Below, in pieces: positions 51,620-58,370 of a stretch of 64,000 nt of DNA. Under the pieces are notes generated by a model. That model was not told the origin of the DNA. It saw only the letters and a program-made list of their open reading frames with translations, and made no database searches. Origin of the DNA: a virus (Duplodnaviria; Heunggongvirae; Uroviricota; Caudoviricetes); the IMG/VR virus record IMGVR_UViG_2778261375_000003. The stretch is one strand, 5' to 3'. The position numbers were made by a program, and so were the translations under genes. Each line of letters begins with the position of its first letter. Position 1 is the stretch's first letter.

Positions 51620-52732
51620 TTAGAATTGGTAGGTCATACCAACAGCAACGATGTTGTCGGTTGCAACCTCAGATCTTTTGGTAAATTCACTTTCATCAAT
51701 CAGGTTGATCTTGTAGTCAACGAAAGCGGACATATTTTTGTTGAAGTAATAAGTCGCACCCAAGTCGATGTATTCAACCAGATCCTGGCTGCCGAACGCA
51801 CCAATATTTTCACCGCGAGAGTGCAGATAAGCGATGGACGGACGCAGGCCGAAATCAAACTGGTATTGAGCAACAGCTTCAAAGTTTTTCGCCTTGTTCG
51901 CGATAAAGTCATCACCGAAGACAGTCATATTCTGAGTTTCAGAATAAGTTGCAGCCAGGTAAATGTTATTTGCGTCATATTTCAGGCCAGTAGCCCATAC
52001 TTCAGCAGTTTTACCAGAAGCATTCAGAGGATCCTTTTTAGCATAGGATACCTGCCCATCAGTACGATCAGATTTTGCATAGGTTGCACCAACGCCAAAT
52101 CCTTCATAATCGTAAGTAGCAGACAGACCAAAGCCATCACCATTAGATTCAACTACGTCACGGCCTTTCCAGTTGTTCACTTTTGCAGCACTATCATTTT
52201 TACCTTGATACTGCAAAGCAAAGTTCAGACCATCAACCAGGCCGAAGAAATCATTGTTACGGTAGGTGGCTACGCCAGTAGCACGCTGGGTCATAAATAC
52301 ATCGGTCTGAGTCCAGGTATCTCCACCAAACTCAGGCAGCACGTCAGTCCAAGCGCCAATATCATAAGCTACACCATAGTTGCGACCATAGTCGATTGAA
52401 CCATAATCAGCAAAACGGAGGCCAGCAAATGCAAGACGAGTTTTATCTTTATCAGAGCCCTCAGATTCAGTACGGTTACCTTTAAATTCGTACTCCCACT
52501 GACCAAAACCGGTTAACTGGTCATTAATCTGAGTTTCACCTTTGAATCCCAGACGAGCATAAGTCTTATCTCCGTCATCACTAGCTGAAGAAGAGAAGTA
52601 ATGTTCTGCGTTAACTTTGCCGTACAGATCCAGTTTATTACCGTCTTTGTTGTAGATTTCAGCTGCTTGCGCAGACATTGCCATCAGGACAGATGCTGCA
52701 ACCGCAGAGAGTGCCACTGTGATTTTTTTCAT
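51620..52732 (-). CDS. general outer-membrane porin (NmpC/Lc/OmpC family)
   Basis: 370 aa; signal peptide [39 protein letters not shown] and C-terminal ...VAVGMTYQF, classical enterobacterial porin signature. Confidence 0.9.
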
Positions 52733-52860: not shown

Positions 52861-53473
52861 AATAATAGCCTTGAAAACCCAATGGACTATTAGAAAAAAC
52901 TCAATTCACAGAATAAAAATTGACAAAATAGATCAAAAAACAATCAAAAATAAGCACAAAAGACAAACAATTAAATTATCACAAAAATAATAACTGTCAA
53001 AAATAGATAGCCTGTTAATTAACAGGGCTTTAATGGATGTAGACTTGAAATCTACTTAAAAATTAGAATCAAATTAATTACTGCCGATTGGGTATTAAAT
53101 TGAATCTATATTGTGAGAGTTAAAGACGATGTGTTTTAGTTATAAATGTTATTCCCTAAAATGGAGCGGTCTCATCGAATCCTGATTAATAACGAGCTAA
53201 GCTAATTCATTTTAGTATGTGTATATCTTTACCCTCTGAATATGCAATAAAGAAGAGATATTAAACAATATGTAGCTTCAGGATTGACTCTGGAAGAATT
53301 AAAAGATCGACTAAAGTGTTCAATATGTGGTGAGCGAAACGCAAAAATTAATTTTTTTTGATCTAACATATTAGGTAACGGCTTGCTTCCATAACCTAAA
53401 GCAAGCCACTACGCGTTTACTTTAAGTACACAATTAACATATCAGAACAGATTATTTTTGCACAATCAGGGAG

Positions 53474-53785
53474 TTAATATACGATCTGGTCTACATGATC
53501 ACCAAAATCATCATCGTCGTCGTCATCATCGCCACCATCTACTGCTGGCCAATCAACAAACCAGCCAGCGTAAAGATGCAGCGTTCGGAGAACATCACTT
53601 GCGGGAGCATCAAGGGTGTTAACGAATCCCATATAGCTATTGGGATTTGCCCCAGCTATGGCTTCAGCGATCATGTCCTCGGTAATGTCACCGGAGATAA
53701 TGCTTAAACGCCCGGAAACTTCTTCATTATCATCAAATTCGATAATGGCATCTCCGCCTAATGGCGCTGCGATTTTAATCTGCAT
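53474..53785 (-). CDS. small highly acidic protein with poly-Asp tract (103 aa)
   Basis: C-terminal GGDDDDDDDDFGDH run; last gene of the leftward dar operon. Confidence 0.5.
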   Translation of the reverse strand: MQIKIAAPLGGDAIIEFDDNEEVSGRLSIISGDITEDMIAEAIAGANPNSYMGFVNTLDAPASDVLRTLHLYAGWFVDWPAVDGGDDDDDDDDFGDHVDQIVY

Positions 53786-55463
53786 TATTTAGATCCTTTG
53801 CCACACCTAATAACAGTTCCAGCAATCCGTCACCATTCATCAGTGATGCGGCAGCGGCCTCTTTGTCATGATACAACTGAAGAGCCATAGAGAATACTTC
53901 CGTTGCTGACGTTTTGGAAATAGTCGGTGATTTCTGCCGAATTTTCCCGGTGTTACTTACTGAGGCTGGCGGGTATACCTTCGCCATATAAATATTACTC
54001 AATCGAGATCTGAAGCACCATTCAGGCTTGCCACGCCCACCGATATTAACGAAAGATGGCTTATCCCCTTCAACATTGGCCTTCAGGAATGACCGGGCTT
54101 TCTCTAACAAACCAGGGTTACTGTACTCAAGATGATGACCCAGCTCGTGCCACAGTGCACTTGCATTTTCATCGTTCAAATTGACAGCAACAACACCATT
54201 AAGATTTGCATATGCCCTTCCCTGGTGGTGAACCACCTTTGATAAGGTCGAAATTTTACCGCCGGTCAGGCGATAAATATCAGCAAGTTCCTTGCGCAGG
54301 TCTATCCCACCATTCTGTCCAGCGCGGGCTTCTTCCACTTCTTCCGTGATAAAAGAGTCGGCCCACTCAAGAGCTTTTTCTTCAGATACGGATGAGTTTG
54401 CGATCGCACTGTTCATGGCAGATAACACTTTCTCGTGGACCGAACCCATTCTTCGCTGATTCATTTGCCAGCGTGTCTGCGGGTTATATGAGAATCGCTT
54501 AAGTAGTTGGTCAAGCTGCTCAAGTTCTTCTTCACTGACATACCTTTTAGCCTCACCAATAATGCCAGGGAGAATATTGCCGTTAGGATTAAACGCTCGC
54601 GAAAGGAAGAGTTTCAGCGCCCCCATGCCCTCCGATGCTTCAATATCACCAATAACCCGGTTAACAATGGCCGCACTCTTCGGATTAGCATCCGCCAACG
54701 CTCTGGCTACAATTTGCAGGGACGATACGACCTCACGCTGCATATCAGTCCTGATCTCATCAATAAACTCTGGCGTTATGCCGTGCTCTTTAAGGATATC
54801 CCTGCCTTCCGCCGTTACCCCATCGATATCACCGACATGTTTATTAACCCGACTTTGCAATGCCTTAAATGCCTTCAGAATTCCACGGGCATCATCCGCT
54901 TTAATAACGGCCTTCCTGAATGCTGGCAAGAAGTCTGAGTTAACCTCATTTTGTTGATCGGCCCACTGAATGGAGGCTTCTTTCATCTCGTCCAGAGTCA
55001 GATCACCCAACGCGGTATGGTCTGTGAATATGAGCGACAACCTCTGAACCATTTCTGCCAATGGTGATGCCGAATGCGCCGCGCTAAGGAATGCTTTCAC
55101 CCTGGTTGGGCGAATGGAAAACCAGTCAATAGCTGGTGGCATATCTCCGTTTTTTATCGCCTGCGCTATCTCGTCAAAGCCATCGCGCCCAAGGGAGGAT
55201 GCGTGATTTAACAAGCCGCGAAGTAACGAATTGCTGATACCGAATAATCGGCACCATTTATTCACGTCGGCAACAGGCATTCGAACAAAATGCGCAAGCA
55301 CTTGTACAAGCTGTTCATCCTGGGGATCTGTTCGGGAAAGCAGCCTGATCAGATGAATAATGTCTTTGATGCCGGATGCCCGATGTAATAGCAAGCTGGT
55401 ATATGGCGCAACACCGTTGTATCCGCTGCTGGTGGCCATAACTATCTGATCGTTTAAACTCAT
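53775..55463 (-). CDS. hypothetical protein (562 aa) in the darA operon (DdrB position)
   Basis: ORF overlapping its neighbours in a co-directional operon downstream of darA. Confidence 0.55.
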   Translation of the reverse strand: MSLNDQIVMATSSGYNGVAPYTSLLLHRASGIKDIIHLIRLLSRTDPQDEQLVQVLAHFVRMPVADVNKWCRLFGISNSLLRGLLNHASSLGRDGFDEIAQAIKNGDMPPAIDWFSIRPTRVKAFLSAAHSASPLAEMVQRLSLIFTDHTALGDLTLDEMKEASIQWADQQNEVNSDFLPAFRKAVIKADDARGILKAFKALQSRVNKHVGDIDGVTAEGRDILKEHGITPEFIDEIRTDMQREVVSSLQIVARALADANPKSAAIVNRVIGDIEASEGMGALKLFLSRAFNPNGNILPGIIGEAKRYVSEEELEQLDQLLKRFSYNPQTRWQMNQRRMGSVHEKVLSAMNSAIANSSVSEEKALEWADSFITEEVEEARAGQNGGIDLRKELADIYRLTGGKISTLSKVVHHQGRAYANLNGVVAVNLNDENASALWHELGHHLEYSNPGLLEKARSFLKANVEGDKPSFVNIGGRGKPEWCFRSRLSNIYMAKVYPPASVSNTGKIRQKSPTISKTSATEVFSMALQLYHDKEAAAASLMNGDGLLELLLGVAKDLNNAD

Positions 55464-55475
55464 CCCTGTTACGCC

Positions 55476-55841
55476 TTATACCGCCTCTTTAATGTTGGCG
55501 GCTATCCATGCCGCCGTGTGCTGTTTAACCTGGTCCAGGTCGATGTATGTGCCAACATATTGACTTAAGTCCTGCAACGTACCGATAAATGCATCGGTGC
55601 TCTGATCGACGAATTTATCAGCCAGGAAATCAGCAACCAGTTTTGGCACACCATCATGCACCGAAGGTTGTTTTTCCTCGCCACTACCGCTGCCGGATGC
55701 GCCGTACCCCATCTGTTGCATGATCTGGTCAATTTCATCGCTGATATCCAGCAACTCCATGCCACTCGCGGTCGCCGCTTTGGACATCAGAGCATCCAAC
55801 TTATCGCTGAGATCCATTAACTCAATAGCTGATAGTGTCAT
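55476..55841 (-). CDS. hypothetical protein (121 aa) in the darA operon (DdrA position)
   Basis: ORF overlapping the darA 3' end. Confidence 0.5.
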   Translation of the reverse strand: MTLSAIELMDLSDKLDALMSKAATASGMELLDISDEIDQIMQQMGYGASGSGSGEEKQPSVHDGVPKLVADFLADKFVDQSTDAFIGTLQDLSQYVGTYIDLDQVKQHTAAWIAANIKEAV

Positions 55842-57757
55842 GCCACTACCCCCGCTTTCTGGATTGCTACCAGCAGATCAGCCAGGTGGCGAGCAGCGCC
55901 ATTAACCAGCTCTTCGTTTTCCTCAAAACGCCCGGCAGCCTGAAGGGCTGCAATCGCTTCCCGGACATTACCCCGGGCATTACGGATCTCCGCCATGTCA
56001 GTGCTTTGCATATCCATCACGCTATTGAGATATTCAATGGCTTTATTAGCCTCTGCATCTGCTTCGCTAACCGTTTCATCAGGCTGTGCCGGGGCCGGTT
56101 CTGGCTGAGTAATCTCACCGACTTCGGCCTGCAATGCATTGATCATGCTCTGCACCATTTTCTCGGTGCCAGCGCCCCCCGGAAACGCAATATTGGGGAA
56201 AGTTTTTTGAAACTGAGTTTTCAGCATTACGCGGAACTCGTCTGGTGAGCTGGTGGCCAGCTCCAGAGCTTTTTGTGCATATTTGCCAAACGGACCATTA
56301 GTAAGTGTCTTCGCCAGGAAGTCGAAAGAATCCTCGCGAGGCAATAACTTCAGGTCGTACTCACTCATTTGCTGATCAGAAAGCGGGGTATCGTAAGTAA
56401 CAATGCCGTAGCGCGCGTATTCATAATACGGGTCACCTTTATCAGGGCGCGGCAGAATTGCTTTGTTACCTTCAGGTATCGCGCCAGGGGCCGCCGGACG
56501 CATTTGCAGGGCATATCGATATGCGCCTACAGAGACTTCTGGTTCAGGCGAAGAGCTGCCGGTATCCTCCACTGGTTCAGGTTCGACGTTTTCCGGTTTA
56601 GGTTCTTCTGGTTGGACCAGATATTCCGATACATTACCCGCTTTATAGGCTTTAAACAGCTTGCCGATCGCATCTGTCATGTCCACACCCTGTATGGATT
56701 TAGCCTTGATCATGTACACGCTGCCATCCGGATCGGTTAACTGGATATACCCTTCGCCGTCCCCAATGAATTGCTTCATTAATGCACCATTACTGAGCGT
56801 CGCTTCCCCGTCCATATGCATACGATTTTTGATACTGGCAAGGCGATCCGTCAGCGCGAGAGAGTGCCCACCAGTCATCCCCGCTGGAGCAATGGTATCG
56901 CGCCCACCAGTGCGATTGAGCTGATCAATCTCCGCCTGCAAACGCTCATTTTCTTGATAAAGAGAATCCGCTTCCGAAGCAACTGCGTTAATTTTCTGCT
57001 CCAGATCTGCCTTCTGGCCTTCTACCGCTGCCACCTGATCCGCGAGGTCGCTCATGGCATCCTCTTTCTGGTCACTGTCAGCCTGTAGTTGGGTTATTTC
57101 ATCAACCAGGGCTTTTTTCTTCTTCTGCGCACGCTGGAATTTTGCCGAGTTTTTCTCTGCAAGGTTGGCAAGTTTCATGGTGACCTGCGCCAGCGTCATA
57201 TCACGTCCACTCATCGGAGCAACGGTGTGAGTAACGTCTTTTTTATTCAGTAAGAACTGGAAAGCAACCAGCGTATCGCTATTGGTGATCCGGTTTTCCG
57301 CTGTCGGGCTATGAAACAGAATGCTGATAGTCTGACCATCACTGAGCGGGATAATGGCTGGCAGGACCGGCAGCCCGTTAACGTTACGTGCCCGGCCAAT
57401 TTCAGCGCCGCCGATCGCTCGCGCGCCGCTCTGGGCCACATCCCCCGTTTTATCACTCCCCGCAGAGATTCCGGTACCATTCAGCTTCTGGTTCAATGCC
57501 CGGACAAATGCCTGCATGGTCCGGTGTAACTGCAAACGAGTAGAACTAATCGCCTCCAGTAAATCCGTAGCACACCAGTGGATCGGCGTGTCATAGAAGA
57601 ACGTAGCCTCGATTTCCTCCAGGGTGTTGGATTCCGTCATCAGATAGCGGTCCTCTCCGGCCATTAATGCGCGATATTCATCATCAGTCACTGGCGGGGG
57701 AAGTACGTCAAGCCCAGGCTTGATCGTCACCCCTTTATTGATATTGAACTGTTCCAT
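55838..57757 (-). CDS. darA: DarA-like antirestriction/capsid internal protein
   Basis: 639-aa protein with central coiled coil, between hdf and the ddr-position genes; name from size and synteny. Confidence 0.65.
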   Translation of the reverse strand: MEQFNINKGVTIKPGLDVLPPPVTDDEYRALMAGEDRYLMTESNTLEEIEATFFYDTPIHWCATDLLEAISSTRLQLHRTMQAFVRALNQKLNGTGISAGSDKTGDVAQSGARAIGGAEIGRARNVNGLPVLPAIIPLSDGQTISILFHSPTAENRITNSDTLVAFQFLLNKKDVTHTVAPMSGRDMTLAQVTMKLANLAEKNSAKFQRAQKKKKALVDEITQLQADSDQKEDAMSDLADQVAAVEGQKADLEQKINAVASEADSLYQENERLQAEIDQLNRTGGRDTIAPAGMTGGHSLALTDRLASIKNRMHMDGEATLSNGALMKQFIGDGEGYIQLTDPDGSVYMIKAKSIQGVDMTDAIGKLFKAYKAGNVSEYLVQPEEPKPENVEPEPVEDTGSSSPEPEVSVGAYRYALQMRPAAPGAIPEGNKAILPRPDKGDPYYEYARYGIVTYDTPLSDQQMSEYDLKLLPREDSFDFLAKTLTNGPFGKYAQKALELATSSPDEFRVMLKTQFQKTFPNIAFPGGAGTEKMVQSMINALQAEVGEITQPEPAPAQPDETVSEADAEANKAIEYLNSVMDMQSTDMAEIRNARGNVREAIAALQAAGRFEENEELVNGAARHLADLLVAIQKAGVVA

Positions 57758-57758
57758 G

Positions 57759-58370
57759 TTAATTTCCTGCTTTCAGTTGCTTAAGACGACGTTTGAGTTC
57801 GCCATTCCGTGCCTTTTCGTTATTGAGTCGGCCCGTCTCCGTATCCAGCTTCGCCCGCAAATCAGTGATCTGCTGTTGATTGAAAGACACCGAATTCTGC
57901 GCGGACTTATAAGCGGCAACCACCTGAGCATTCCGCTGTTTTGCCTCTTGCAGGCGCTGAAAGTTGGATTTTACTGCCGGTTTCTTGTCTACCGGATTGG
58001 CAACACGTTTCGCTTTGGCGATCAGTGATTTCTGGAATTTTGCGGAGTTTTTGCTGGCCGCTTGCCCCATGACGGTACCAAGCGTCTTGATATCCGGCGA
58101 CTGAGCGTTAGGAATAGCTTTTCCATTCAGCTTCACAGACGATATATCGCCAGTATCGTTTACCTGTATGGCAAGAATTTGTCCGTCGTTAAGAACCAGC
58201 TTTGCGGTTTTAACTTTAACGCCATCTTTCGTTGTTGCGCGGTTGCTGGAGTCAACCTCAATTACCGTAACCCCGGTTTTATTGATCGCCGCGATAAGGG
58301 ATTTCAGCCCCTTTTCATTAACCTGGTCAAAATCGACCGTTGCATACTTATTTTTCGTCATCTGACACAT
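57759..58370 (-). CDS. hdf: Hdf-like protein (203 aa)
   Basis: ORF immediately upstream of darA, coiled-coil C-terminus; name from synteny. Confidence 0.5.
   Translation of the reverse strand: MCQMTKNKYATVDFDQVNEKGLKSLIAAINKTGVTVIEVDSSNRATTKDGVKVKTAKLVLNDGQILAIQVNDTGDISSVKLNGKAIPNAQSPDIKTLGTVMGQAASKNSAKFQKSLIAKAKRVANPVDKKPAVKSNFQRLQEAKQRNAQVVAAYKSAQNSVSFNQQQITDLRAKLDTETGRLNNEKARNGELKRRLKQLKAGN

Follow-up and report, generated by a model that had tools for sequence, protein, structure and literature searches.

What is the role of the small, strongly acidic protein encoded by the last gene of the darA operon of P1-like phages? We examined this question in a 64,000-nucleotide stretch of viral DNA (Caudoviricetes; IMG/VR record IMGVR_UViG_2778261375_000003; hereafter the window). 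There, an earlier note made from the sequence alone had singled out a 103-amino acid (aa) open reading frame (ORF) at the end of the antirestriction (dar) operon and had suggested that its product is a DNA mimic or a packaged-protein chaperone with an anti-defence role. We find that this ORF is the already annotated phage P1 gene hxr, not a new entity, and that it is tightly linked to the adjoining gene ddrB. From this linkage we tentatively propose that Hxr is a partner, acting in the producer cell as either a chaperone or an inhibitor, of the C-terminal metallopeptidase module of DdrB.

Hxr, a conserved protein with a polyacidic tail

The window represents a P1-like phage (Punavirus), and this region is 99% identical to phages phi456 and JL22. 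The protein encoded by the ORF (MQIKIAAPLGGDAIIEFDDNEEVSGRLSIISGDITEDMIAEAIAGANPNSYMGFVNTLDAPASDVLRTLHLYAGWFVDWPAVDGGDDDDDDDDFGDHVDQIVY) is 100% identical to the annotated Hxr of both of these phages and 97% identical to P1 Hxr (P1_gp021, YP_006490). It matches the profile of a protein family of unknown function, PHROG 2292 (phrog_2292), with an E-value of 3.9e-60, with residues 1-103 aligned to positions 1-105 of 105. The earlier note had thus recognized a real acidic gene, but overlooked that it is a known one and that it carries an Xre-like repressor label in databases. Window hxr and P1 hxr share the same position after ddrB, an 11-nucleotide (nt) overlap with that gene, and a downstream terminator region. 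They differ in the acidic tract, which is an uninterrupted D8 in the window and D-E-D5 in P1, and in their neighbour: unlike in P1, hxr in the window follows a 562-aa ddrB allele that lacks the ParB half.

The 103-aa product and its eight uninterrupted aspartates were described correctly in the earlier note: the run spans residues 86-93, encoded by the codons GAT GAT GAC GAC GAC GAT GAT GAT, and lies in a strongly acidic C-terminal region (...WPAVDGGDDDDDDDDFGDHVDQIVY). The 23 residues past a conserved WP motif carry a charge of -11, with no basic residue. Overall, the protein contains 24 acidic and 3 basic residues (net charge -21, isoelectric point (pI) ~4.05), and its charge of -0.204 per residue makes it the most acidic product among the 108 ATG-initiated ORFs of at least 80 aa in the window. 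An aspartate run of eight or more arises with a frequency of 3.5e-5 in composition-preserving shuffles of the Hxr sequence.

We conclude that hxr is a genuine protein-coding gene under purifying selection, because the ratio of non-synonymous to synonymous polymorphism (pN/pS) in its core is 0.11 (first 80 codons, 21 distinct alleles), and because homologues down to 29% identity retain its length and motifs. Opposite hxr, the plus strand holds a 70-aa ORF (53495-53707) in which the poly-Asp tract is translated as poly-Ile/Val, similar to a membrane helix. This antisense ORF keeps neither frame nor length in divergent loci, and the selection that we observe is that of the hxr frame; the antisense ORF most likely arose incidentally from the GAT/GAC tract.

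A word-indexed protein search returned near-identical Hxr proteins only, and divergent members of the family were added by an exhaustive phmmer search and by a profile search. These divergent proteins (96-100 aa, 29-47% identity) are encoded by Klebsiella, Citrobacter, Enterobacter, Cronobacter, Rosenbergiella, and Salmonella contigs 80-94 kb in length, and the family as a whole is found in P1-like phage-plasmids of Enterobacterales only. An alignment of 23 sequences reveals a core of ~75-80 residues with a net charge of -3 to -10, in which S50, G53, V65, L66, R67, G74, W75, W79, and P80 are invariant and which contains the motifs GD(I/V), PNSxxGxVN, VLRxL, and GWxVxWP. In all 23 members the core is followed by a tail of 21-25 residues with a net charge of -7 to -14 and no lysine or arginine. 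The sequence of the tail diverges, and its final residues are mostly (I/V/F)-(V/I)-(N/Y/H).

The acidic tract itself is variable. Among 83 IMG/VR loci it is 6-10 residues long, with D8 in 10 and D9 in two of the 83, and its length changes among close relatives always involve whole codons. Most Hxr relatives carry D-E-D(4-8), and the uninterrupted D8 of the window is an allele detail. Since tail acidity is conserved while tract length and sequence vary, selection appears to act on the polyanionic tail as such and not on the Asp8 run itself. A metagenomic P1-like contig (L004) encodes a tandem duplication of Hxr at the hxr position (P0014; 184 aa, L004 8001-8555), in which the first copy has a short acidic stub only and the second has a complete polyacidic tail.

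We modeled the structure of Hxr with AlphaFold2 from the 23-sequence alignment (effective number of sequences (Neff) 2.8), obtaining a mean predicted local distance difference test score (pLDDT) of 75.8 and a predicted template modeling score (pTM) of 0.63. Averaged over 10-residue blocks, residues 1-83 score ~82-89, except for residues 21-30 (69). The model comprises strands at residues 2-6, 12-16, and 28-32, a helix at residues 36-44, a short strand region, a helix at residues 62-71, and a short closing strand. With a pLDDT of ~40, residues 84-103 are predicted to be disordered, and about half of the charge of the protein is located in this tail. Searches of Hxr against Pfam, NCBIfam, and PADLOC profiles gave no match at E<=1, and a sequence search of the PDB with the Hxr family profile gave chance matches only (E>=0.17). 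The predicted core is an acidic fold without detectable relatives.

We rejected a relationship to FG-GAP/VCBS repeats: the phmmer matches cover Hxr residues 23-49 only, their score is summed over 6-11 repeats of the short string G-D-(I/V)-T-x-D-x-(I/V)-A-E, the invariant W..WP region lies outside the match, and the model has a helix where FG-GAP has a loop and a strand. In a model of the tandem protein P0014, both halves share the same topology, with an uncertain inter-domain arrangement (pTM 0.53), and this model is uninformative on Hxr dimerization.

Linkage of hxr to ddrB

hxr closes the late darA operon as the seventh gene in the order lydA-lydB-hdf-darA-ddrA-ddrB-hxr. The same order is recorded in the 1998 record of the P1 darA operon (AJ000741), which lists lydA, lydB, ORFIII (hdf), darA, ORFV (ddrA), ORFVI/VII (ddrB), and ORFVIII (hxr), with an annotated terminator 30-103 nt past ORFVIII. 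The placement of the gene at the end of the dar operon, after hdf-darA-ddrA-ddrB and ahead of a terminator, is thereby confirmed. In the window, a compound hairpin matching this terminator has a predicted RNA folding energy of -38.4 kcal/mol (z -4.95); it has no canonical U-run and was missed by a simple terminator scan.

The junction between ddrB and hxr is conserved across the family. The 11-nt overlap of the two genes is present in 83 of 83 close IMG/VR loci, and an overlap of 11-17 nt is found in lineages whose Hxr is 29-45% identical. In seven divergent loci, the sequence GAAGGA, AAGGAG, or CAGGAG lies 6-9 nt upstream of the hxr start, inside ddrB. The overlap suggests that hxr and ddrB may be translationally coupled. 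We considered a DdrB-Hxr fusion made by frameshifting to be unlikely: a TAA codon stands in the hxr frame two codons before the ATG, the 11-nt overlap contains no slippery heptamer, and the conserved Shine-Dalgarno sequence indicates separate initiation. The two genes also occur in similar numbers: among PLSDB plasmids, 483 carry hxr and 477 the ddrA-ddrB junction, and in a phage collection there are 20 records with an hxr match, all of them P1-like, and 20 with a ddrB match at a query coverage of at least 80%, the two lists being compared by count only. Genomic coupling to ddrB is the strongest functional clue for Hxr.

Which part of DdrB might be relevant is indicated by natural deletions. 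P1 DdrB is 995 aa long; Iyer et al. 2017 place a DdrB-ParB domain at its N-terminus and a zincin metallopeptidase domain at its C-terminus, and we identified a HELGHH (HExxH) motif in the DdrB sequence. The ddrB of the window is an in-frame deletion allele: the ParB half, equivalent to P1 residues 13-446, is gone, and the C-terminal metallopeptidase module with its HExxH motif remains. Consistent with this, the Pfam ddrB-ParB family has a match in full-length relatives and none in the window DdrB. The deletion junction recurs in 21 of 477 P1-like PLSDB plasmids, and an upstream ORF of matching short length (~566 aa) is present in five of the 83 IMG/VR loci. A P1-like lineage from Klebsiella encodes an independent ParB-less DdrB of 558 aa (34% identical), whose start falls at the same domain boundary; the full DdrB, of 998 aa, is encoded by a sister contig.

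hxr directly follows the ParB-less ddrB in both the window and the Klebsiella lineage. Because Hxr is kept in two lineages without the ParB half, its partner, if it lies in DdrB, would be the C-terminal module. The same retention weakens the idea that Hxr is an immunity protein against the ParB-like domain of DdrB. On the sequences compared here, the ParB half of DdrB appears to be optional and to have been lost repeatedly. According to a 2025 preprint, ddrB is 'missing' from most D6-group phage-plasmids, and these may instead encode short DdrB forms of the kind found in the window.

A candidate partner of DdrB and the alternatives

Type III secretion (T3S) chaperones, immunity proteins, and Inh/AprI inhibitors are small acidic proteins that are co-translated downstream of an effector or protease and are not themselves delivered. 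As for a chaperone or inhibitor gene next to its effector, hxr adjoins ddrB, with the overlap and the Shine-Dalgarno sequence inside ddrB across lineages. With class I T3S chaperones, colicin and polymorphic-toxin immunity proteins, and operon-encoded inhibitors of metalloproteases such as Inh/AprI, Hxr shares small size, acidity, and a gene position directly downstream of a delivered effector; it differs from them in its polyacidic disordered tail, which is not the rule in those families. Of the two roles raised in the earlier note, that of a chaperone for a packaged protein fits the evidence best.

In the model that we tentatively favour, Hxr would be made late in infection in a fixed proportion with DdrB and, in the producing cell, would serve the C-terminal zincin metallopeptidase module of DdrB as a dedicated partner. 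As a chaperone, it would keep DdrB soluble and fit for loading into the prohead; as an inhibitor, it would restrain the DdrB peptidase, or its DNA-binding surface, until packaging. The polyanionic tail, together with its conserved hydrophobic end, may serve as a docking or masking element. Hxr need not enter the virion, and would work like a T3S chaperone or an effector-adjacent immunity protein, not like Ocr, the DNA mimic of phage T7. DdrB has been reported to undergo processing from 108 to 76 kDa, and has been proposed to be a negative regulator of the Dar system.

A more specific version of this model appears doubtful to us. Here, Hxr would be the first dedicated, non-packaged partner of a capsid-delivered polyvalent effector. 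Its orphan-fold core would bind the DdrB C-terminal module, and its tail would sit in the metallopeptidase cleft or mask the DNA-binding surface, thereby timing DdrB self-processing and prohead loading. Small ORFs of Vibrio phages, described below, would be tail-less relatives of Hxr in a conserved two-gene module.

Published data on P1 are consistent with an unpackaged Hxr. The virion proteome of P1 comprises 27 proteins, including DdrB, DdrA, DarA, Hdf, Ulx, and DarB, and Hxr is not listed among them. Nor is it included in the six-protein Dar system as described in reviews and in a 2026 paper on the structures of DarA and Hdf. Knock-down of hxr by CRISPR interference (CRISPRi) caused no loss of P1 plating (values 1.6 and 1.2), and hxr is listed as non-essential in the same CRISPRi paper (which cites Piya 2017), a status on record for a non-restricting host only.

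We also identified a possible parallel in large Vibrio phages. Proteins with a DdrB-C-like HExxH domain occur in three groups of these phages (the VP-1/VAP7 group, Bakedbeans, and the D509/K452/1.255.O group), and in each group an ORF of 87-90 aa lies directly 3' of the DdrB-C-like gene. The spacing is close: a 4-nt overlap with the upstream gene is seen in D509, K452, and 1.255.O, an 11-nt overlap in Bakedbeans, and a start 2 nt past the upstream stop codon in VP-1. These small ORFs form one family, whose members are not acidic and have no tail. The VAP7 protein appeared at rank 19 in a BFVD fold search with the Hxr model (E 1.8, template modeling (TM) scores 0.38/0.41, 84 columns). We regard the Vibrio ORFs as a weak lead toward a metallopeptidase-partner module, and keep them as a positional lead only. 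In current records, the small ORF is unannotated in VP-1 and mislabelled 'tetraspanin-15' in VAP7.

Several points weigh against a partnership of Hxr with DdrB. Linkage and overlap of hxr and ddrB speak for co-expression, not interaction. The absence of Hxr from the virion proteome is weak evidence, because the protein has one convenient tryptic peptide and that study required two unique peptides: the predicted tryptic peptides are 4, 22, 41, and 36 residues long, only that of 22 residues is convenient in size, and Hxr does not appear in the text or supplement of the paper. The predicted structure rests on a shallow alignment. The fold match to the VAP7 protein is far from significant and was noticed post hoc, and comparison of the Vibrio small ORFs with Hxr by hhalign gave probabilities of 1.4-1.5% in local and 0.08% in global alignment, leaving homology without sequence support. 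Finally, hxr appears in only six full-text papers that also mention phage; the relevant ones list it in gene tables, and none of those examined reports a functional study. Older P1 papers may hold a deletion phenotype.

In the alternative emphasized by the earlier note, Hxr would be a DNA mimic similar to Ocr or ArdA, ejected with the DNA or present early, that binds and blocks DNA-binding defences, such as restriction enzymes of type I or type III. Like Ocr (T7 gp0.3) and ArdA, Hxr is a small, very acidic protein of a mobile element in an antirestriction context, and its charge density (-0.20 per residue, the window maximum) is comparable to theirs. Moreover, both core and tail are acidic throughout the Hxr family, the gene sits in the paradigm antirestriction operon, and a small protein with few tryptic peptides could evade virion proteomics. 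DNA mimics have many unrelated folds, so that a novel fold would also be compatible with this function.

However, we found no sequence or fold relation between Hxr and Ocr, ArdA, or any solved mimic. Hxr shows neither an Ocr profile match nor the elongated all-alpha Ocr fold, and neither an ArdA profile match nor the three-domain elongated dimer fold of that family. Structure prediction, proposed in the earlier note as a check for a mimic-like charge pattern, gives a compact alpha/beta core and places about half of the charge in a disordered tail, whereas Ocr and ArdA present a rigid elongated dimer with a DNA-shaped surface. Timing differs as well: on entry, the genes for Ocr and ArdA are expressed among the first, while hxr lies in a late operon. 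A late product would have to be packaged, yet Hxr is neither among the detected virion proteins nor among the six Dar components. Protection by Dar works in cis, limited to the DNA packaged together with it, and a co-infecting Dar- phage is not rescued; an enzyme-titrating inhibitor would act differently. The main text of the EVADES preprint, a catalogue of 268 anti-defence proteins, does not mention hxr. We consider a mimic-like function unlikely because hxr belongs to a late operon, Hxr is absent from the known contents of the virion, Dar acts in cis only, and about half of the charge lies in a disordered tail. Of the anti-defence role that had been read from gene position, a Dar-associated function remains reasonable, given membership in the darA operon and tight linkage to the ddr genes; the DNA-mimic form of that role is not supported.

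Hxr could also be directed at the host, for example as a decoy of the kind formed by the C-terminal tail of single-stranded DNA-binding protein (SSB-Ct) or as a late counter-defence protein, with no relation to Dar and only an incidental place in the operon. Accessory genes are frequent at the ends of phage operons, and the P1 ssb gene is nearby. The form of the Hxr tail, polyacidic and then hydrophobic at the C-terminus, is in keeping with such a role: Hxr shares with SSB, T7 gp2.5, and HMGB-type proteins a disordered polyanionic tail on a folded domain, and the tails of those proteins act by competing with nucleic acid or by docking onto pockets that are basic or hydrophobic. In contrast to those proteins, the predicted core of Hxr is neither an OB fold nor an HMG box, and most Hxr members end in I-V-N, lacking the terminal aromatic residue required in SSB-type tails. 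The strict overlap with ddrB, kept down to 29% identity, goes beyond incidental placement, and we judge a host-directed role to be improbable.

We view with still more reserve a role for Hxr as a transient polyanion of the prohead interior or of an assembly stage, which would balance the charge of, or chaperone, the basic Hdf or other DNA-binding Dar proteins, and would be expelled or degraded when DNA enters. Hdf (pI 10.15, net +19) is a near mirror of Hxr (net -21), and the two are encoded at opposite ends of the Dar genes in the operon. Loading begins with Hdf and DarA, which contact DNA and capsid, and Hxr is not among the detected proteins of the mature virion. By analogy only, the disordered polyacidic tail resembles those of histone chaperones, whose acidic tails handle histones; the prohead core of phage T4 contains acidic internal peptides. 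Against such a role, the conserved coupling of hxr is to ddrB and not to hdf, which lies four genes upstream, and DarA, DdrA, and DdrB are themselves acidic.

The database reading of Hxr as an Xre-like repressor ('possible repressor; homolog of Xre'), which entered the P1 RefSeq record from 28% identity over ~58 residues and was copied to many records, is essentially refuted: Hxr has no match to HTH_3 or any other helix-turn-helix (HTH) family at E<=1 in Pfam and none in NCBIfam, its model shows neither an HTH nor the all-alpha five-helix Xre fold with its recognition helix (three strands occupy the N-terminal part, and 17 residues, a strand among them, lie between the two helices), its pI of ~4 and net charge of -21 are poorly suited to DNA binding, the end of a late structural operon is unlike the position of a regulator, and only size (~100 aa) is shared with Xre/HTH_3 repressors. 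The probability that remains across all of these readings belongs to something else.

The hxr locus and its annotation

Coordinates of hxr, its parts, and the surrounding operon are collected in Table 1. Between ssb and hxr, the window also carries a general porin gene on the minus strand (51620-52732, 370 aa; Pfam Porin_1, E 3.9e-148). The same gene is found in phi456 (as Orf6), in the metagenomic contig L004, and in an mcr-1-carrying P7-like plasmid of K. pneumoniae (annotated ompD); P1 itself has isaA-IS1-isaB at this site.

Table 1. Features of the hxr locus; positions refer to the window, except in the last row, where they refer to the Vibrio phage loci named.
Feature	Position	Strand	Basis or detail
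hxr coding sequence	53474..53785	minus	ATG start, 103 codons and TAA stop; ORF list and translation, PHROG 2292 match
Folded alpha/beta core of Hxr, residues 1-83 (predicted)	53537..53785	minus	AlphaFold2 model, family motifs
Polyacidic C-terminal tail of Hxr, residues 84-103, predicted disordered	53477..53536	minus	pLDDT ~40
Asp8 run of Hxr, residues 86-93, imperfect GAT/GAC triplet tract	53507..53530	minus	Codon reading
Shine-Dalgarno sequence AAGGA for hxr	53794..53798	minus	8 nt upstream of ATG, within last ddrB codons
11-nt hxr/ddrB overlap	53775..53785	minus	hxr ATG 53785-53783, ddrB TAA 53777-53775
ddrB, short allele (562 aa), proposed Hxr partner	53775..55463	minus	Alignment to P1 ddrB, HELGHH motif
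ddrA	55476..55841	minus	PHROG DdrA-like family, synteny with P1 and phi456
darA	55838..57757	minus	Pfam DarA_N and DarA_C, synteny with P1 and phi456
hdf	57759..58370	minus	Synteny with P1 and phi456
Terminator-like compound hairpin, core 15-bp stem 53375-53412	53359..53449	minus	End of darA operon; matches AJ000741 terminator
Vibrio phage small ORFs	L096 3756-4028; L097 3567-3830; L098 4501-4767; L100 and L101 301-564		87-90 aa

P1 Dar is the textbook case of a capsid-delivered antirestriction system that acts only in cis, and it is described as consisting of six proteins; hxr is the seventh gene of the same operon. Its conservation and coupling are as strict as those of the other operon genes, yet it has been set aside, and the repressor label is one plausible reason. 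The label 'putative repressor Hxr' has spread over the records of P1-like phages and phage-plasmids, including mcr-1 carriers, and should read "darA-operon protein of unknown function".

Overall, our analysis yields a corrected annotation, in which Hxr is not a repressor, and a testable hypothesis that links Hxr to the C-terminal module of DdrB. If the likeness in fold to the Vibrio phage proteins were borne out by better models, the P1 lineage would have added the acidic tail to an older module made up of a metallopeptidase and a small partner. If Hxr controls DdrB, this would explain how a packaged metallopeptidase effector is restrained in the cell that produces it.

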